Positions 35,510-51,155 of a stretch of DNA of 64,000 nt are shown here, in pieces. This stretch comes from an uncultured Candidatus Rokubacteria bacterium (GTDB lineage Bacteria > Methylomirabilota > Methylomirabilia > Rokubacteriales > CSP1-6). The notes below the pieces were generated by a model that had not been told where the DNA came from, did not search any database, and saw nothing but the letters and a program-made list of their open reading frames with translations. The number at the start of each line of letters is the position of its first letter. The stretch's first letter is position 1. Location: contig CAVWWD010000004.1 in assembly GCA_963758635.1 (NCBI GenBank), positions 128,001 through 192,000 of the forward strand, read 5' to 3'. A program made the position numbers and the translations under genes.

Positions 35510-35528
35510 CCCGCGGTAGGAGGTGCAC

Positions 35529-37089
35529 ATGCGCGCCGTTCCCCTCGCTCGTCCCGGCTCTCGGCTCGCCCTCTGCCTCCTGGTGCTGGCCGCGGTGACC
35601 GTCCTCGGCCCCGCGGCGCCGGCCTCCGCCCAGCCGGGCCCGGGCGAGGTCGTGATCGCGTGGCACGTCACCATCGCGCCGTCCTGGTTCGACCCGTCCA
35701 CGGCGCCTGCCCAGATCACGCCCTTCGGCCTGCTCTACGCGATGCACGACGCCCTCGTCCGGCCGCTCCCCGGCGGCCAGCGCATGGGCCGGAGCCTCGC
35801 CGAGTCGTGGACGGAGAGCCGGGACGGCCTCACGTACGAGTTCAAGCTTCGCCCCGGGGTGAAGTTCCACAACGGCGATCCCGTCACGGCGGAGGACGTC
35901 AAGTTCAGCTTCGACCGCTACAAGGGCGCGGGCTCGAAGGAGCTCCACGCCCGGGTCCGGCAAGTCGACGATCGTCGATCCCCTCACGGTCCGCTTCGTC
36001 CTGAAGGAGCCGTGGCCCGACTTCATGACGTTCTACGGCACCACGGCCACCGCCGCGGGCATCGTGGTGCCCAAGAAGTACTTGCAGCAGGTCGGCGACG
36101 ACGGGTTCACCAAGGCGCCGATCGGCGCCGGGCCCTACCGGTTCGTGAGCCACAAGCCCGGTGTGGAGGTGGTGCTGGAGGCCAACCCGCAGTACTGGCG
36201 GAAGGTGCCCAGCGTGAAGCGCGTCGTCCTCAAGAGCGTGCCCGAGGGCACGACGCGGGTGGCCATGCTCAAGAAGGGCGAGATCGACATGGCCTACGCC
36301 CTCGATGGGGAGGACGCGGAAAACGTCCGGCGCGATCCGCGCCTCACCCTGGTGCCGTCCAAGCACGCGTCGATCTTCTGGATCGAGATGACCGAGCAGT
36401 GGGATCCCAAGTCACCGTTCGCCGACAAGCGCGTGCGCCAGGCCGCGATCCACGCCCTGGACCGGAAGACCATCAACGAGGTGGCCTGCCTCGGCTACTG
36501 CCCGCCGACCGGCGTGATCATCCCCCGCGTGATGGACTTCGCGCTTCAGACCCAGCCCCCCGCCTTCGACCCCGTGCGCGCCAAGCAGCTCCTTGCCGAG
36601 GCGGGATACCCGCGCGGGTTCGACGCCGGGGAGCTGACCCCCACGCCGCCCTTCACGACGGTGGCGGAGACCACCCTCAACTACCTGGCCGCGGTGGGGA
36701 TCCGCGCCAAGCTCCGCACGATGGAGCGGGCGACGTTCCTCGCCTCCTGGCGTGAGAAGAAGCTCCGCGGCCTCGTCCTCACCGCGGTGGGGAACTCCGG
36801 CAACGCGGCGACCCGCGTGGAGTCGTTCATCTACTCCAAGGGCGGGTACGCGTACGGGGGCTACCCGGACATCGACGACCTGTTCCAGCAGCAGGCCCGC
36901 GAGCGCGACTCGGCCAAGCGCGAGGCGATCCTGCACCAGATCCAGCAGCTCACGATCGACCGCGCGATGTTCGTGCCCATCATGGACTACCGCACGCTCC
37001 GGGGCGTGGGCCCGCGCCTGGCCGAGCACGCGCTCAACGTCATGCACCTCGTGCCGTCGCCGGCGCTGGAGGAGATGCGCCTGAAGTAG
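35529..37089 (+). CDS. Family 5 ABC SBP, frameshift near 35970
   Basis: SLAESW, GVKFHNG, then PIGAGPYRF, DKRVRQA. Confidence 0.85.
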
Positions 37090-41951: not shown

Positions 41952-43034
41952 ATGCGCGTCCCCGAACGGCTCATCCGAAGCCAGCTCCAGTCCGTGCTCC
42001 GCGCCTGGGGCATGAGCGAGGCCCACGCCGAGACCACCGCCGACGTGATGACGGAGACCGATCTCCGCGGCGTGGACTCGCACGGGATCTCCATGCTGCC
42101 GACCTACGACCGCGAGTTCCGCGCGGGCCGGCTCAACGTGCGGCCGACCTTCCGCACCGTGCGCGAGGGGCCGGCCATGGCGCTGATCGACGCCGACGCC
42201 TCGCTCGGCCACGCGCCGAGCGTGCACGGCATGAACCTGGCCGTCGACAAGTGCCTGGTCTCGGGCGTCGCCGCGGTGACCGTCGTGAACTCACACCACT
42301 TCGGCGCGGCAGGGTGCTACGCGAAGATCGCGTCCGAGCGCGGCGTGATCGGCCTGGTGACCACGTCCACGCGCGGCGTGTCCCTCGTGCCCACGTTCGC
42401 TTCCGAGCCGATCATGGGCACCAACCCGATCGCCTTCGCCGCCCCCGCCCGCCGCAATCCCGCCTTCATCCTCGACATGGCGACGACGACGGTCGCGGCG
42501 GGGCGGGTGAAGGTGAAGAAGCTCAACCACCAGCCGCTGCCCGCGGGCTGGGTCGTGGACGGCGACGGCCGCGCGGTGACTGACGAGACGCAGGCCTTCC
42601 ACCAGGTGTTCGAGAGCCCGGACGGCGGCATCACGCCGCTGGGCGGCACGCGCGACCTCGGCAGCCACAAGGGCTACGGGCTCGCCGTGCTCGTCCACAT
42701 CCTCGCCGGCACGCTCACCGGCGCCTCGTTCTCGCCCATCCGGAACCGGACGCAGCGGCCGTCGGACCCGCACAACATCGGCCACTTCTTCCTCGCCATC
42801 GATCCGAAGGCGTTCCGGCCCGATGGCGGCTTCGAGGCGGACCTGGACCAGGTGCTCGACACGCTGCGGGGGGCGAAGCGCGCCGATCCCAGCCAGCCGG
42901 TGATGGTGGCGGGGGACCCGGAGCTCGCCACGCGCGCCGAGCGCAGCGAGGCGGGAATCCCGGTGCCGGACGACCTGATGGAGCAGCTCCGCGGAGTCGC
43001 CGCCGCGGCGAAGGTGCCGTTCGTCCTCGCCTGA
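41952..43034 (+). CDS. Ldh_2 (malate/L-lactate dehydrogenase family) oxidoreductase
   Basis: DLRGVDSHG, NSHHFGAAG, GTNPIAF, DMATT, HKGYGL. Confidence 0.92.
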   Translation: MRVPERLIRSQLQSVLRAWGMSEAHAETTADVMTETDLRGVDSHGISMLPTYDREFRAGRLNVRPTFRTVREGPAMALIDADASLGHAPSVHGMNLAVDKCLVSGVAAVTVVNSHHFGAAGCYAKIASERGVIGLVTTSTRGVSLVPTFASEPIMGTNPIAFAAPARRNPAFILDMATTTVAAGRVKVKKLNHQPLPAGWVVDGDGRAVTDETQAFHQVFESPDGGITPLGGTRDLGSHKGYGLAVLVHILAGTLTGASFSPIRNRTQRPSDPHNIGHFFLAIDPKAFRPDGGFEADLDQVLDTLRGAKRADPSQPVMVAGDPELATRAERSEAGIPVPDDLMEQLRGVAAAAKVPFVLA

Positions 43035-43049
43035 CCTGCACGGGCTCCT

Positions 43050-43164
43050 GGATCCCTCTCCCCTCTGGGGAGAGGGGAGGGTGAGGGGCCGTCGCACGTC
43101 CTGGCGCGCGAGCTCGTGCGCCCGACCCTCACCCTGACCCTCTCCCTGGGAGGGAGAGGGGATC
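43050..43164. repeat. REP-like doublet (CCCTCTCCC..GGGAGAGGG / CCCTCACCC family) between convergent genes
   Basis: GATCCCTCTCCCCTCTGGGGAGAGGGGAGGGTGAGGG and its inverted counterpart ending GGGAGAGGGGATC. Confidence 0.75.
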
Positions 43165-43166
43165 GG

Positions 43167-43686
43167 TCAGGAGCGCAGAAGGTCCAGGACGAGCGGGGCG
43201 AGCTGACGCGGCGCGCTCGTCCAGCTGGGTTTCGCCCAGCGTGGCGATGGGGTGGGGCGTGCTGAGGAACCGGAAGCCGGGCAGCCCCCAGGTGGCGGCC
43301 ATGGCGGCCGCGGTCTGACGGAAGGGATCGGTGATCACCGCGATCCCCGGAATCCCTCGCTCCTCGAACATCAGCGCGTCGAGCACACTGCTCGAGCTGC
43401 ACGACCCTCAGTCGCCGATGCCGGACACCACGAAGTCGCAGACGCGGCGCAGGGTGTCCGCGCTCTCCTCGGTGACGCCGTGGCTGGGCGACCGCTTGCG
43501 GTGCACGGTCACCACCGTCATGCCGTGCTCGCGGGCGAGGCGCGCGCCCAGCCGTTGCAGGAGCGCCTCGGAGTTGAACTTCGTGTTCTCGACCAGGCCC
43601 ACGCGGAGCCCGGCGAGAGCGGCGGGACGGCGGGCGAGGGTCACGCCGCGCGGGATCGGATCGCTCGTCGGATCGAAGAGCTTCAT
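43167..43686 (-). CDS. UGSC-family selenoprotein candidate (in-frame TGA 43408-43410; probable frameshift near 43210)
   Basis: ...VVSGIGD-TGA-GSCSSSVLDA...GIPGIAV...PHPIA, continuous frame across the TGA. Confidence 0.8.
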
Positions 43687-44702
43687 CGTGGATCTCCAGG
43701 CTCGATGGGAACGGTCACGCTGCGGGTCCACTTGTTGCCCCAGCCGGGCAGGCACGCCGACCAGCTTCCCGCCTCGCCGCCCGCGCGGACCAGGATGATG
43801 TCCTCCGGCCGCTCGAAGGCGTGCTTCCACGTGGTCTCGTCCCCCGGCTCGACCGCGCCCGGCCGCCGCCCCGCCCGCTTCAGGTCGGCCACGGTGCGGC
43901 GCGCGTGACGGACGAGGAACTCGCGCACCTCGGCCTTGCTCCACGTGCCCAGGACGTCGGCGTGCTCGCCGGCCAGGACGACGAGCGACTGGTTGAAGCC
44001 GCGGAGGTTCGGCGTGCCCAGGTTGCAGAGGGCGTCGGCGAAGCAGCGGAGGAGCGGCTCGGGCTCGGCGGCGAGCTGGTTGTAGACCTGGCAGAGGCTG
44101 TTCGACGCGTAGACGGTGACGGCGCTCTGCTCGACGCGGAGCCCGCGCTCGACGTGGAGCGGCTCCCACGGATGGCGCGTGTCGCTCTCCGCGAAGCAGA
44201 ACGAGTACTTCCCGGGGTTGCCGAGGGTCGCGCGGTCCAGCAGGCCCGGCCGCGTGCTCATCACGTTCATCATGGCCAGGCGCACGGCGCGGCCAATGGT
44301 GGCGTTGGCCCGCGTCCCTTGTCCGAACGCGTTGTTGCCCGCGTTGATGCCGATGCGCCGCCCGATGGGCCCGCTGACGATGAGGACCATGGCCGACCCG
44401 CCGGTGCTGCTCGCCGGCCCGTGATACGCGAAGTCCGGATGGCACAGCCCGCGCACCGCCGCCGCCACCACCGGGAAGTACTCGGGCCGGCACCCCGCCA
44501 TCACGGCGTTGATCGCCAGCTTCTCCGCTCCAACCACGACGCCGCGCTCCACGATCGCGCCCACGGTGTCGGTCGCCTCGAGCCGGGCGCCGGCCAGCAT
44601 CGCGGCGATCGACTCGTCCGTCGGCGGAACGACCGGCAGCCCGTCCGTCCAGCCCCGGTCGTAGTACGCCTCGATCAGCGCTGCGGGGTTCTCGTTGCTC
44701 AT
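43683..44702 (-). CDS. Conserved TDGLP-motif protein (UGSC-associated)
   Basis: GWTDGLPVVPPT, EKLAINAVMAGC.PEY, RANATIGRA, GNPGKY..CFAE. Confidence 0.85.
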   Translation of the reverse strand: MSNENPAALIEAYYDRGWTDGLPVVPPTDESIAAMLAGARLEATDTVGAIVERGVVVGAEKLAINAVMAGCRPEYFPVVAAAVRGLCHPDFAYHGPASSTGGSAMVLIVSGPIGRRIGINAGNNAFGQGTRANATIGRAVRLAMMNVMSTRPGLLDRATLGNPGKYSFCFAESDTRHPWEPLHVERGLRVEQSAVTVYASNSLCQVYNQLAAEPEPLLRCFADALCNLGTPNLRGFNQSLVVLAGEHADVLGTWSKAEVREFLVRHARRTVADLKRAGRRPGAVEPGDETTWKHAFERPEDIILVRAGGEAGSWSACLPGWGNKWTRSVTVPIEPGDPR

Positions 44703-44733
44703 GTCCGTGACGTGTGCCCGCTTGCGTCGGTCG

Positions 44734-46377
44734 CTAGCGCCATGCGTCGACCGAGGCGGTCTTCTGGTACGTCGCGCCCATGATGCGCCAGTACCCGTTG
44801 GTCTCGCCGCCGACGACCACCACGTGGATGTCCTCGCGGCGGAACATCGGGATCAGCTCGTCGGCAGCGGCCTTGAGCTTGGAGGCCCACGGCTCCTCGC
44901 CGAACGTGGCGCGCGGATAGATGTAGTTCTGGACGAGCTGGTAGTCCCAGTACTCGGCCGCGGGCAGGCGCGCCGTGTCGTGGAGCCAGTCGATCAGCGC
45001 GTCCTTCTTGGTGAAGCCGCCCCGATCCACGAACTGGCGCGCGGCGATCGGGTCCAGCAGCAGCACGGGCGGCACGCTCGGGTCCATGCCCTGGAGCAGG
45101 TGACGGACGTGCGCGCGCCAGTGGCGCTCGCGCAGGCCCAGGGTGAACGCGGTGGAGCGGCAGCCGGAGAAGACGCTCACCGCGCTGTCGCCGGGGGCGA
45201 GGCCGTGCTGGACGTGGAACGGCTCCCACGGGCTCCGCTCCTCGTTCTCCGCGAACGTCACGCTGTTGTACGCGTAGTTGTTGCCCTGGTTGCCCATGTA
45301 GCTGAGGCCGGGCACGGAGCCGCCCTGGAGGTTCTGGGACAGGAGGCCCCACGCGCGACCGATCGTCGCGTTGGCGTGGCTGTACGGGCCCATCGCGCCG
45401 ACGCCCGCGTTCATGCCGATCTCGGCCCGGACGGGGCCGCCGACCACGGCCATGGCGGCCATCGCGCTCGAGCTGCTGCTCCGCGCGGTGACGCCGGTGG
45501 ACGCGATGGCCAGGATCACCGGGAAGTACTCGGGGCGCGCCCCCGCCATCACCGCGTTCACGGCCACCTTCTCCACCGTGTACTCCCAGTGCTCGCGGAA
45601 GTGCGTCGAGCGCATGCGCCCGACGACCTCGTCTGGCTTCCGCCGCGTGCCCGCGAGCATGGCGGCCACGCGCGCCTCGGTGGGCAGCACGATGGGCAGG
45701 CAGTCCGTCCAGTGGTTGTCGAGGAAGAGCTGGTGCAGGCGCTCCTCGGGGGCCGGCGCGAGGAGGCGCGGCGTCGAACGGTCGAACTCGATGGGCCCGC
45801 CCTCGCCGGCATCGAACGGACGCGTCAGGCCCTCGACCACCTCCTGCATCACGGGCCGGCCGGTGAGGGGATCGGCGCCGTCGACGTAGGCGCGGAGCTC
45901 GGCCGCCGTCTTGCCCATGATGGGCTGCGGGACGAACACCTGGCGGAGGGCGGGCATGCCGCCGACCGTCGCCACCGAGCGCACCACACGGTCGAACTTG
46001 TCGGTGTGCACGGCCACGGTGGGAACGCCGTACGTCCCTTCGAGCGTCATCGCGTGCGCGGCGACCGCCGGCGCGCAGGTGCTTCAGTGGCCGACGCCGA
46101 GGATCGCGGCGTGGCCACGGGCGCGGATCTCCTCCCAGGTGGCGGGATCGTCGTTCAGGTAGACGCTCGACAGGCGCTTGACCACGGCCTGCACGCCGGG
46201 CATGTGGTCGGCGAACCACTGGCGCATCTGGCCCAGGAAGACGTCGGAGTCGTCGAAGCGGCAGTCGACCAGGTACACGGTCTTCCCGGCGAGCGTGGGC
46301 AGCCGCGGCGCGAGCTCCTTCTGGACGACCTTCGGGGCGAAGCCGGTGGGATTCAGCACCGTGATCTCGTGGGCCAT
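44734..46377 (-). CDS. UGSC-domain / TDGLP-domain fusion selenoprotein candidate (in-frame TGA 46084-46086)
   Basis: ...ILGVGH-TGA-STCAPAVAAHAM joins ORFs 46084-46416 and 44734-46050 in one frame; C-terminal WTDCLPIVLPT domain. Confidence 0.8.
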
Positions 46378-46455: not shown

Positions 46456-47049
46456 TCAGAGGCCGAGGCCGGCCAGCCCCCGGATGGTGACGGCCTCACC
46501 GATATGCGACGAGTTGTGCCGGAGCGCGGAGCTGGCGAGCTGGTCGGCGCGCGTCCAGCCGCGCCACGGGTACGGCTCGCCGGGCGTCCAGTCGCGAAAC
46601 GCGTCCGTCCCGGCGCGCGCGAGGTCCGCGTCGCCGATGACCTCGTCCCACGCCGGCGCGGACAGCGACTGGACGACCTCACGCGTGCGCAGGCCGACCG
46701 CGGTCCGGTACGCGCGCACGGCGCCCACGTCGGCGCGCGCGCTCATCTCGGCGACCTCGTCCTCGGTCATGCCGGTGCCGATGATGCGCCACGGGACGTT
46801 CATGCGGCGGATCCACTCCTCGTCGAGGACCTGCGGCCGCCCGGCCACGACGGGGTTGACGGCGGCGTCCTCCGTCCGCGCCATGTGCCAGAGGAGCCAG
46901 ACGAGCGAGTTGAGCCCCGGCCCCGGACGCAGTCGCATCTGGTCGTCGTCGAGCTCGCCGAAGACGCGCTGGGCCGGGAAGTCGCGGCCGCTCACCTCGC
47001 GAGCGTGCACCGCGGCATGCTGGGACAGGAAGAAGGTCAGGAGATCCAT
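46456..47049 (-). CDS. DinB family protein
   Basis: NSLVWLLWHMARTED, HNSSHIGE. Confidence 0.8.
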   Translation of the reverse strand: MDLLTFFLSQHAAVHAREVSGRDFPAQRVFGELDDDQMRLRPGPGLNSLVWLLWHMARTEDAAVNPVVAGRPQVLDEEWIRRMNVPWRIIGTGMTEDEVAEMSARADVGAVRAYRTAVGLRTREVVQSLSAPAWDEVIGDADLARAGTDAFRDWTPGEPYPWRGWTRADQLASSALRHNSSHIGEAVTIRGLAGLGL

Positions 47050-47158: not shown

Positions 47159-47755
47159 GTGCGACCCACACTCGACGACGCCGCGCTCGACCTGATCCTG
47201 CGCGAGGCGCGCACGCAGAACGGCTGGCTCCCCACGCCCGTGACCGACGACCAGCTCCGGGCCATCTACGAGGTCGTGCGCACCGGGCCGACCAGCGCCA
47301 ACAGCTGCCCGGCGCGGTTCGTGTTCCTCCGCACGCCGGAGGCCAAGGCGCGCCTCCTGCCCGCGCTCGCCCCGGGCAACGTGGACAAGACCAAGGCGGC
47401 GCCGGTGACCGTGATCATCGGCTCCGACCTGCGGTTCTACGAGTTCCTGCCCACCAAGCTCTTCGCCCATCGCCCGGAGATGGCCGACAACTACGCGAAG
47501 AACGCGGCGCTCGCCGAGGTCACCGCGTTCCGGAACGGCACGCTCCAGGGCGCGTACTTCATGATCGCCGCCCGCGCCCTCGGCCTCGACGTGGGCGGCA
47601 TGTCCGGCTTCGACAACGCGAAGGTCGACGCCGAGTTCTTCCCGGGCGGGCGGATCAAGTCGAACTTCCTCTGCAACGTCGGCCACGGCGACCCCTCGAA
47701 GGTCCTGGCCAAGCTGCCGCGCCTCGACTTCGCGGAGGCCTGCACGCTCCTCTGA
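47159..47755 (+). CDS. Malonic semialdehyde reductase-like nitroreductase (RutE/YcdI family)
   Basis: EARTQNGW, GPTSANSCPARF, RNGTLQGAY, MSGFD, KLPRLDF; TTGACA at about 47071. Confidence 0.88.
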   Translation: MRPTLDDAALDLILREARTQNGWLPTPVTDDQLRAIYEVVRTGPTSANSCPARFVFLRTPEAKARLLPALAPGNVDKTKAAPVTVIIGSDLRFYEFLPTKLFAHRPEMADNYAKNAALAEVTAFRNGTLQGAYFMIAARALGLDVGGMSGFDNAKVDAEFFPGGRIKSNFLCNVGHGDPSKVLAKLPRLDFAEACTLL

Positions 47756-48023: not shown

Positions 48024-49205
48024 CTACGAGACGAACTTGAACAGGCGCGCCGCGTTGCCGCCGAGGATCTTCGCGCGCTGCGGGTCGGTGAGCCGCCCCA
48101 TCGTCCGCTCGATGGCCTCGGCGGAGTGCGGCCACGTGCCTTCGTGGTGCGGGTAGTCGTTGCCCCACATCAGCGAGTCCACCAGGTCGTAGCGCTCGGC
48201 GAGGTCGAGGCCCGGCGGGTCCTCCTGGAACGAGGCGAACCCGTGGGCGCGGAAGAACTCGCTGGGCAGCATCTTGAGCTTCGGGCGCACCCAGAAGTGA
48301 TGCTTCCGGTACGCCTCGTCCATGGCGGTGAGGAGCCACGGCAGCCAGCCGATCCCCGCCTCGATGGTGGCGAAGCGGAGGCCGGGGAAGCGCTCGAGGA
48401 CGCCGGAGGCGCAGAGGTTCGCCACCGGCTCGATCGTGGGCGACAGCGAGTGCGAGACGTAGTTGATGACCGCGCCGCCGTTGCCGCGGGACGCGCGCGG
48501 ATCGCGGCCCGTCGACACGTGGAAGGTGATCGGCAGCCCCGTCTCCTGCACGAGCGCCCACAGCGGGTCGAACACGGGCAGGTTGTAGTTCGGATGCTCG
48601 ACGTCGTGCGCGCCCCAGATCGGCTTGCAGGGGAGCGTGAGGCAGCGGAAGCCGAGCTTGGCCACCCGCTCCACCTCGGCGAGGGAGCCCGGGAGGTCGC
48701 CGGTGGCGATGGCGGCGGCGGGCGACATGCGGTGGTTGTACGGCCCGAACGTCTCCCACGCCCACTCGTTGTAGGCGCGGCACTGCGCCATCGCGAACGC
48801 GGGGTCGGGCGTGGCCCACATCGACAGGCCCTTGTTCGGGAACAGCACCTCGCAGTCGATGCCGTCGGCGTCCATGTCGCGGAGCCGCTCCTCGGGGTCG
48901 GCGCCCGCCTTCGAGCGCAGCAGGTCCTCGCCCTCCAGGTCGGACAGCCGCAGGCGGTCGGGCCGGTGGCCCTCGGTGACGCGCCACTGCACGCCCTTGT
49001 CGTCGGTGATCACGCGCGGGAGGCGCTCGTGGTACTTCCGGTCCATGCGGCGGAGCCAGAGGTCCGCGGGCTCGTTGACGTGCGAGTCGGCGGACACGAC
49101 GAAGTACTTCTTCGGGTCGCCGGGGCGGGCGGTGCGCGGCCAGCCGGTGTGGCCGGGCGTCTCGAGCCGCCAGAGGTTCGGGGGATTGACCGTGACCGTG
49201 CTCAT
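48024..49205 (-). CDS. Amidohydrolase_2 family protein
   Basis: SADSHV, IEAGIGW, WGNDYPHHEG. Confidence 0.9.
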   Translation of the reverse strand: MSTVTVNPPNLWRLETPGHTGWPRTARPGDPKKYFVVSADSHVNEPADLWLRRMDRKYHERLPRVITDDKGVQWRVTEGHRPDRLRLSDLEGEDLLRSKAGADPEERLRDMDADGIDCEVLFPNKGLSMWATPDPAFAMAQCRAYNEWAWETFGPYNHRMSPAAAIATGDLPGSLAEVERVAKLGFRCLTLPCKPIWGAHDVEHPNYNLPVFDPLWALVQETGLPITFHVSTGRDPRASRGNGGAVINYVSHSLSPTIEPVANLCASGVLERFPGLRFATIEAGIGWLPWLLTAMDEAYRKHHFWVRPKLKMLPSEFFRAHGFASFQEDPPGLDLAERYDLVDSLMWGNDYPHHEGTWPHSAEAIERTMGRLTDPQRAKILGGNAARLFKFVS

Positions 49206-50075: not shown

Positions 50076-51155
50076 TCAGCGCGGGCCGGCGGCGGCGAAG
50101 GCGGGGAGGACCTGCTCGCCGAAGCGTCGCATCGACGCCACGATGCGCTCGTGGGGCAGGTAGCCGAAGCTGAGCTGGCAGAGGACGTGCCCGACGCCGA
50201 TCGCCCCGAGCTCCGCGAGCTGCTCCTTCACGCGGGCGGGCGTACCGCAGAGCGCGCCCGTCTCCAGCGACCACGTCACGCCGTCCTCCTCCGACACCGC
50301 CGGGTCCGTGAACGGGTTCAGCATGGCCGGGTCCACCTGGAAGTCCGGCGGGTTGTGCGCGCTGCGGGCGTGGTGCATGTGGCGGCGCGTGTGGCGCAGG
50401 GTCTCGGCCAGCTCGTCCTCGGCCTGGGCCTGGCTGTCCGCCACGTACACGTGACGCCACAGCGCCACCTCGCGCAGGAGGCGTGCGCGGTCGGCCTCGG
50501 GGTGGCCGCCCTCGGCCAGGCCCTGGGCGTAGAGGGCCAGGCGCTCGGGGATGCGGGCGGCCGGGATCCGCGCGGTCATGATGGGCGCGGCGAGCCGTCC
50601 GCACTCCCGGAACGACGCGGGCGTGACCACGCTGCGCCAGATCGGCGGATGCGGCCGCTGGTACACGCGCGGGCGGAGGGCGGGCAGGCGGGCCTGGAAG
50701 TACTTGCCCTCGTGCACGAACGGCGTCTCCGTCCACGCGCGGGTGAGCACGTCCAGGGCCTCGGCGGCGCGCTCGCGCGCGTCGTCGCTCCGGAGCCCGT
50801 AGCCCATGAACTCGTACTCGTTGTAGATGGACCCGCGACCCACCCCCACGTCGAGCCGGCCCCGGCTCAGGTTGTCGAGCAGCGACAGCTCGACGGCGAG
50901 GCGGACGGGATGGCGGAGCGCGAGCTGGATGACGGCGAACCCGATGCGCACACGCCGCGTGCGCGCGGCCACGGCGGCGGCGAACGGGATCGGGTCGCTG
51001 TAGACCGCCTCGCCGGTGAAGTTGTGCTCGGTGAGCCAGATGCCGTCGAAGCCGAGCTCCTCCGCGTAGCAGGCCTGCTCGAGCTGCTGGGCGACGGCGG
51101 CGTGATCCTCCTCGGGCGACGGGGAATGCGCGAGCGTGATCCAGCCGAATCGCAT
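50076..51155 (-). CDS. LLM-class flavin-dependent oxidoreductase
   Basis: GIWLTEHNF, LDNLSRGRL, PRVYQRPHPPIW. Confidence 0.9.
   Translation of the reverse strand: MRFGWITLAHSPSPEEDHAAVAQQLEQACYAEELGFDGIWLTEHNFTGEAVYSDPIPFAAAVAARTRRVRIGFAVIQLALRHPVRLAVELSLLDNLSRGRLDVGVGRGSIYNEYEFMGYGLRSDDARERAAEALDVLTRAWTETPFVHEGKYFQARLPALRPRVYQRPHPPIWRSVVTPASFRECGRLAAPIMTARIPAARIPERLALYAQGLAEGGHPEADRARLLREVALWRHVYVADSQAQAEDELAETLRHTRRHMHHARSAHNPPDFQVDPAMLNPFTDPAVSEEDGVTWSLETGALCGTPARVKEQLAELGAIGVGHVLCQLSFGYLPHERIVASMRRFGEQVLPAFAAAGPR

Follow-up and report, generated by a model that had tools for sequence, protein, structure and literature searches.

We describe three adjacent genes from an uncultured Candidatus Rokubacteria bacterium, located at 43167-46377 of a 64,000-nucleotide stretch of its genome (the window; contig CAVWWD010000004.1, positions 128,001 to 192,000). 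They encode a fusion of a UGSC-family selenoprotein domain to a partner domain, here called TDGLP (gene 1), a stand-alone TDGLP protein (gene 2) and a stand-alone UGSC selenoprotein (gene 3). We suggest that they are two separate copies of one enzyme type, fused in gene 1 and split in genes 2 and 3, and that each is likely a selenocysteine (Sec)-dependent reductase recharged by a thioredoxin-reductase-like flavoprotein. The probability of this reading is put at about 0.5. Close homologues of the genes are found in Rokubacteria/Methylomirabilota. The features are as follows.

44734..46377, minus strand: gene 1, a 547-aa UGSC-TDGLP fusion selenoprotein of the H-U-S-T-C subfamily, stop TAG
45880..46362, minus strand: UGSC domain of gene 1 (residues 6-166), PF24696 E 6e-25, predicted flavodoxin-like alpha/beta sandwich
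46084..46086, minus strand: UGA read as Sec98 of gene 1 (G-H-U-S-T-C), from TGA/TGC conservation in orthologues
46056..46076, minus strand: hairpin of gene 1 of the selenocysteine insertion sequence (SECIS) type, loop GGTC, from fold and synonymous-site conservation
44737..45762, minus strand: divergent TDGLP (“Unknown_1”) domain of gene 1, lacking the family cysteines (Ala280, Thr374)
43683..44702, minus strand: gene 2, a 339-aa stand-alone TDGLP (“Unknown_1”) protein with Cys71 and Cys169
43167..43686, minus strand: gene 3, a stand-alone UGSC selenoprotein of about 172 aa
43408..43410, minus strand: UGA read as Sec93 of gene 3 (G-D-U-G-S-C), from TGA conservation in orthologues
43379..43395, minus strand: SECIS-type hairpin of gene 3, loop GTG, from fold and synonymous-site conservation
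43208..43212, minus strand: one-base frameshift near the 3′ end of gene 3; orthologue ends fit the shifted frame

Selenocysteine codons and hairpins

The in-frame TGAs at 46084-46086 (GHUSTC) and 43408-43410 (GDUGSC), reported in the initial annotation as candidate Sec codons, were confirmed in position and frame. TGA is the usual stop in this genome, terminating 1878 of 2571 long open reading frames, and the case for Sec therefore rests on conservation and not on the TGA itself. The same count would favour a reading in which the genes are broken, both UGAs being genuine stops or errors of assembly, and the assembly does contain indel errors. However, the codon is conserved well beyond this genome. 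At the Sec98 site of gene 1, all 80 orthologous loci, which come from several phyla and are 62-85% identical, carried either TGA (77) or the cysteine codon TGC (3). Cysteine was also found at this position in 30 of 30 aligned full-length database homologues (120 hits listed), so that gene 1 has Cys-containing counterparts aligning at the TGA in both sets. Most of the other listed database hits were 438-aa pieces beginning after the UGA. Gene 1 itself is stored in the protein database as such a piece, as expected from the earlier suggestion that standard gene callers would break these genes.

For gene 3, 103 gene-2 loci were examined, including that of the window, and in 81 of them the match covered the Sec93 site. 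TGA was present in 80 of the 81; the remaining locus (L179) was disrupted there. Of the other 22, nine were cut by contig ends, nine had only the 3′ third of gene 3, and four, each with at least 800 nt of flank, gave no gene 3 match. The nine in which gene 3 is reduced to its 3′ third and lacks the Sec site, while gene 2 is kept, were metagenome loci (L141-L147, L151 and L185). In both gene 1 and gene 3, the protein is conserved on either side of the UGA. In addition, all 150 listed PF24696 matches from the phylum carried exactly one TGA (61 genomes, the family being present in 45).

The hairpin loops start 18 nt (gene 1, GGTC) and 20 nt (gene 3, GTG) after the UGA. Both hairpins (CGGC-GGTC-GCCG and TCGAGCA-GTG-TGCTCGA), which had been compared with bacterial SECIS elements, fold as described, and their codons show the signature of selection at synonymous sites. 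Codons 102-106 of gene 1 were each represented by a single codon in 76-77 of the 77 TGA loci, against none of 92 control four-fold codons conserved to at least 97%, and were altered in all three TGC loci. Codons 98-103 of gene 3 were fixed in 78-79 of 80 loci (controls at or above 97%: none of 22). Related loci are not independent, yet the control codons were drawn from the same loci. Judged from this conservation, both UGAs are selenocysteine codons, and broken genes are an extremely improbable explanation.

Sec machinery and the UGSC family in the genome

The genes selA, selB and selD and the tRNA-Sec gene (selC), which the initial annotation had proposed to look for, are all present in the genome, selA and selD being split by frameshifts. 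All six UGSC domains of the genome carry a TGA, and each lies within or next to a TDGLP gene. The four UGSC-TDGLP modules outside the window, all with UGA, are at C5:638531-640053, C6:167190-168767, C8:380808-382374 and C8:855673-857266 of this genome (G000). They show three layouts, with the partner first, with UGSC first, or fused. Among sampled genomes of the same taxonomic family, 32 of 32 had UGSC matches, 2 to 12 in each. The family is thus expanded in this lineage, where its members are cut at the UGA by gene callers.

UGSC-family selenoproteins were already known, as the initial annotation stated, and the accessible parts of the literature agree with it that they have no assigned function. 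In the Global Ocean Sampling data they ranked with the most abundant selenoprotein families: Zhang and Gladyshev (2008, PMC2398784) listed 255 such genes and 21 homologues with Cys. Their function was left unassigned in the available text of PMC1976440, and they are still grouped with uncharacterised thioredoxin-like proteins in that of a 2026 review (PMC13188914), which also refers to a genome of Methylomirabilota for which 63 selenoproteins were predicted. The accessible portions of PMC9312934 and PMC7539508 contain nothing on UGSC function. No relevant paper on TDGLP, on PF24696 or on selenocysteine in Rokubacteria was found in the literature outside subscription journals.

Separate inheritance of the fused and split modules

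The layout of a UGSC-TDGLP fusion followed by TDGLP and then UGSC was confirmed on the minus strand. The three genes are co-oriented, gene 1 and gene 2 are separated by 31 nt, the ATG of gene 3 overlaps the stop of gene 2 (ATGA), and gene 2 has no internal stop in its reading frame. This compact arrangement would suit the interpretation in the initial annotation, according to which the three proteins form one multi-subunit selenoenzyme; in such an enzyme the two TDGLP domains could be a heterodimer. That TDGLP domains may pair is also suggested by seven listed representatives (616-741 aa), each with two or three stretches matching the TDGLP query. The orthologous loci, however, do not bear this out. 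Gene 2 was downstream of gene 1 in none of the 80 gene 1 loci, 74 of which had at least 400 nt and 66 at least 1500 nt of downstream flank. Gene 3 follows gene 2 in most gene-2 loci, and a gene 1 orthologue was nearby in only two of the 102 other gene-2 loci (84 of which had 500 nt or more of upstream flank), neither of them an uninterrupted unit. In L149 an opposite-strand gene, matching the nitroreductase of the window, lies between gene 1 and gene 2, and in L188 the gene 1 orthologue is on the other strand from gene 2. Furthermore, the four other loci of the genome each have a single module. A conserved three-gene unit was rejected on these 80 and 102 loci, and a three-subunit enzyme is very improbable. 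The locus itself is not special as an operon.

The earlier description of the same module occurring once fused and once split holds at the family level. Closer up it does not, as the TDGLP domains of genes 1 and 2 are 33% identical and are not sisters in the tree. Gene 1 TDGLP is on a long branch apart from gene 2, whose closest paralogue in its own genome is on C5 (52%). This tree was built from 40 sequences with FastTree, rooted at the midpoint and given no clade test; the fifth TDGLP gene of the genome (C8, frameshifted) was omitted. The locus comparisons show two modules that are neighbours here but are not conserved as one unit and have been inherited separately.

The UGSC domain

Gene 3 matched both UGSC models, NF041046 with 129.9 bits (cut-off 125) and PF24696 with 168.8 bits (cut-off 25, E 1.5e-49), the latter match being reported as residues 3-158 and also as 1-158. 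Gene 1 scored 88.8 bits with PF24696 and 61.3 bits with NF041046, thus failing the equivalog cut-off of the second. Its motif is U-S-T-C, not the literal U-G-S-C, in 76 of the 80 orthologous loci. The protein atlas yielded only unnamed or auto-named clusters, with recognition below threshold. When the sequences of solved structures were searched with genes 1 and 2 and with the TDGLP and UGSC profiles, no match was below E 0.06.

The model of the gene 1 fusion (547 residues) had a mean predicted local distance difference test (pLDDT) of 92.0 and a predicted template modelling score (pTM) of 0.90, and suggests a fixed packing of UGSC on the TDGLP domain. In the model, the UGSC domain consists of five alternating strands and helices with Sec98 right after the third strand. 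Its 50 listed fold matches were flavodoxin-like, receiver, B12-binding and Rossmann domains (Z 8.5-11.2), and the UGSC profile matched a redoxin profile with a probability of only 1.2 (hhalign). The model favours a flavodoxin-like fold over the published assignment: UGSC was said to likely have a thioredoxin-like fold in the accessible text of PMC2398784, and it is likewise grouped with thioredoxin-like folds in that of PMC13188914. We did not find the flavodoxin-like match in print, subscription papers not being covered in this and the following literature comparisons.

The TDGLP partner domain

Fusion of UGSC to a domain labelled “Unknown_1” has already been published (PMC2398784, Fig. S1A, as available), and the motif of that alignment, A[VI]NxVMAGCxPEYxP, identifies it as the TDGLP domain. 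The remainder of gene 1 and the whole of gene 2 matched no Pfam or NCBIfam family. Gene 2 had 4862 relatives at E<=0.001 (50% cluster representatives), and a domain with thousands of relatives is without a model in either database.

Four polar residues, Asp20, Asn133, Arg138 and Glu172 (gene 2 numbering), were each present in 109-110 of 111 diverse TDGLP proteins, together with Cys71 in 105 and Cys169 in 104. The polar residues were also kept in the 103 gene-2 loci, in which Cys71 was found 102 times and Cys169 103 times. Of the 150 listed TDGLP representatives, 52 were longer than 385 aa, and these included 29 with UGSC, five with redoxin and one with a ferredoxin-thioredoxin reductase (FTR) catalytic domain. 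The TDGLP partner thus keeps recruiting dithiol modules. The redoxin-, thioredoxin- and FTR-fused proteins, often auto-named “thioredoxin family protein”, have the same partner with a dithiol module in place of UGSC or besides it. Unlike the redoxin-fused proteins, genes 1-3 lack a redoxin domain.

The conserved cysteines and the redoxin and FTR fusions of other lineages would be expected if UGSC were an electron shuttle only, a substitute for thioredoxin, and if the chemistry were done by Cys71 and Cys169 of TDGLP. Thioredoxin-dependent sulfoxide or ribonucleotide reductases would be the analogy. The gene 1 orthologues do not fit such a shuttle. All 80 possess the UxxC, the four polar residues of TDGLP and His97, but Ala and Thr replace the two partner cysteines in 77 of the 80, and the other cysteine (Cys406) is kept in only 62. 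Since the UxxC is retained where the partner cysteines are gone, Sec in the gene 1 subfamily cannot merely recharge them. A shuttle may thus hold for genes 2 and 3 yet fail for gene 1, and as a general explanation we consider it unlikely, though more deserving of attention than the other alternatives.

By its sequence, gene 1 is a divergent H-U-S-T-C subfamily without the two conserved cysteines of the partner. The USTC variant had been pointed out as unusual, and rightly so, since it marks this distinct subfamily. The TDCLP variant, pointed out with it, is incidental: its Cys is kept in only 7 of the 80 gene 1 orthologues, and a functional role for it was rejected. The subfamily also differs from the Unknown_1 domain of PMC2398784, as far as the accessible figure goes, in that the conserved Cys highlighted there is absent from gene 1. 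We found no report of it in print.

The gene 2 TDGLP model (pLDDT 95.7, pTM 0.94) had no clear solved match. With Foldseek, the best matches were iron-sulfur (Fe-S) class I fumarate hydratases, with E 4e-4 but a template modelling score (TM) of about 0.3; on realignment they reached Z 4.1-5.0 (at Z 4.1, root mean square deviation (rmsd) 5.7 over 183 aligned residues). Wide fold searches gave best Z values of 6.2 and 6.6. The part matched, about 90 residues, is a common alpha+beta unit of the chorismate mutase AroH/YjgF type, from which neither kinship nor a new fold can be concluded. The lack of a clear solved match for TDGLP was likewise not found in print.

The Fe-S fumarate hydratase matches would be relevant if the UxxC, with His97 in gene 1, ligated a metal or an iron-sulfur cluster, making these proteins metalloenzymes or cluster carriers. 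The best fold match of the UGSC domain points the same way, as does the invariance of His97. The structure matched, 8s7v_H (Z 11.2, rmsd 5.1, 138 aligned), belongs to the activation complex of methyl-coenzyme M reductase and, judging by its length, is probably Mmp7. Mmp7 ligates its cluster through His84 and Cys143 (PMC12176620, accessible text). However, this match was only 1.0 Z above those to B12-binding and receiver domains, the Mmp7 family model had no match in the genome at E<=1, and the fumarate hydratase matches were low when realigned. A metal- or cluster-binding role is therefore improbable.

Two further kinds of TDGLP protein were observed. Tandem double-TDGLP proteins were represented by P0243, P0249, P0252, P0254, P0261, P0279 and P0305. 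In P0248, P0266, P0324 and P0381, TDGLP is fused to a small CxxC domain that is NifU-like by eye and had no Pfam or NCBIfam hit.

Linkage of gene 1 to TrxB-like genes

A TrxB-like gene with a CxxC was found directly downstream of gene 1 in 9 of the 80 loci, including all three Cys-form loci. The linked loci belong to Chloroflexota, Binatia/Deltaproteobacteria and Alphaproteobacteria, and this position of the subfamily, directly upstream of a TrxB-like gene in three phyla, was not found in print. The linked gene scored 300 bits against TIGR01292, below the cut-off of 343. Two further samples were taken. In Chloroflexota, 14 of 301 genomes yielded 15 gene 1 loci, some of them overlapping the first set of 80; TrxB was directly downstream in seven (seed included) and divergent upstream in two. 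In Alphaproteobacteria, 3 of 401 genomes yielded four loci; TrxB adjoins gene 1 in the seed, and in another locus it lies one gene beyond. At the level of whole genomes, selB was absent over the cut-off from the two Cys-form genomes tested and present in two of three TGA-form genomes.

The Chloroflexota genome G823 contains a Cys form as well as a TGA form of gene 1 (loci L301 and L306), each with a divergent TrxB-like gene upstream. Downstream of a more distant alphaproteobacterial fusion (L289, G156:C2:2979519-2984090), which contains one TGA, are a selD-like gene, identified by eye, and then the beginning of a TrxB-like gene.

Proposed reaction

The initial annotation proposed a Sec-dependent redox enzyme, and a redox enzyme remains, on the sequences compared, the best reading. 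As in GrdB (the selenoprotein B of glycine/sarcosine/betaine reductase) and PrdB (of D-proline reductase), the UxxC of UGSC stands at the end of a strand, and a helix and an E-x-x-G-[IV]-P turn come after it. The UGSC profile matched a GrdB/PrdB profile over 70 columns around the UxxC with an hhalign probability of 84.7 (E 6.7e-6), compared with at most 3.9 in 20 column shuffles and 1.2 for redoxin. PrdB and GrdB take part in the reductive cleavage of amino acids (PMC13188914, accessible text). We consider a relation of UGSC to these proteins plausible from the profiles but not established.

Membership of the glycine and proline reductases themselves was rejected. PF07355 (GrdB/PrdB) matched neither gene 1 nor gene 3 at E<=0.1 and no UGSC locus at E<=1, and genes of the GrdE/PrdA type, which encode the pyruvoyl proprotein partner (PF09338), were beside no UGSC locus of the genome, occurring only beside two long GrdB genes. 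Unlike in those reductases, the partner of UGSC is TDGLP, for which no relation to GrdE/PrdA was detected. The genome has four GrdB/PrdB-like genes (C3:512812-513849, C8:172290-173325, C8:80741-81151 and C8:861321-861746), each with a UGA in its UxxC. The two long ones adjoin GrdE-like genes and the two short ones do not; about 4 kb separate one of the short genes from a UGSC fusion. A GrdE/GrdG-like gene was also found a few kb from 8 of the 102 gene 2 loci, on the opposite strand, in what are probably close kin.

We infer the following chemistry and electron path for the proposed reductase. The selenol of the UxxC would attack a small substrate held at the interface of UGSC and TDGLP, as is thought for the Sec of PrdB and GrdB. 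The substrate would be bound by the four invariant polar residues of TDGLP. The second residue of the UxxC (Cys101 in gene 1, Cys96 in gene 3) would then free the product, leaving an Se-S bond, and this bond would be reduced by NADPH and the TrxB-like enzyme, either directly or via thioredoxin. For the substrate we can offer only a guess, a small organic catabolite, prompted by the variable catabolic neighbour genes.

Several observations weigh against this proposal. The profiles behind the GrdB/PrdB match were built from 48 UGSC sequences and from 11 GrdB/PrdB sequences picked by motif, and with cysteines masked the match drops to a probability of 32 over 39 columns. The gene 1 subfamily alone reached 29.5 against GrdB/PrdB, and 1.2 when masked, where a 10-column TrxB control reached 29.7. 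No TrxB-like gene lies beside gene 1 in the window or in any Rokubacteria/Methylomirabilota locus of the 80; the genome of the window has a TrxB-like gene elsewhere. The TrxB-linked loci may represent one transferred cassette rather than independent events. The third TGA-form genome lacked selB, but it also lacked an EF-Tu match and looks incomplete. Finally, clustering of neighbours revealed no conserved substrate-specific neighbour, the commonest groups being generic (20 of 80 and 15 of 102 loci).

A more specific version of the proposal is that UGSC and TDGLP constitute a class of selenoenzyme not described before. In it, a Sec domain related to PrdB would sit on a catalytic domain of unsolved fold, which would take the place of the pyruvoyl subunit found in glycine and proline reductases. 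The enzyme would receive its electrons straight from a dedicated thioredoxin reductase and would reductively cleave a common organic substrate in soil and water. We put this forward tentatively, as a possibility on the doubtful side. The H-U-S-T-C subfamily, whose natural Cys forms in Alphaproteobacteria have a TrxB of their own next to them, offers a two-gene system for testing it without selenium. The value of the locus is that gene 1 leads to such a fusion, a natural Cys form adjacent to its own thioredoxin reductase, as a minimal test system for finding the activity of the whole family.

Assembly of gene 3 and surroundings of the locus

As assembled, gene 3 has one extra base near 43208-43212, and only the shifted frame runs on to its stop at 43167-43169. 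The shifted-frame end agrees with the ends of the orthologues. The frameshift is likely an assembly error, since selA and selD of the same assembly are also frameshift-split. Public sequencing runs contain only parts of the stretch (best share 0.47), and none of the listed matching pieces covers 43208-43212. One independent public contig is identical to 43396-43719 and extends only 12 bases past the gene 3 UGA. Matching contigs from RNA libraries do not demonstrate transcription.

The neighbours in the window, named from Pfam matches, are an Ldh_2 dehydrogenase (41952-43034), a DinB-family protein (46456-47049), a nitroreductase (47159-47755), an amidohydrolase (48024-49205) and a luciferase-like monooxygenase (50076-51101). 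None of the five is a constant neighbour among the orthologous loci. An ATP-binding cassette (ABC)-transporter substrate-binding-like gene, named by eye, is split over two frames at 35523-37089 on the plus strand, likely by another assembly indel. The Ldh_2 gene and gene 3 converge, and two copies of the palindrome CCCTCTCCC-N-GGGAGAGGG, which occurs 107 times genome-wide, lie between their ends at 43054-43160.

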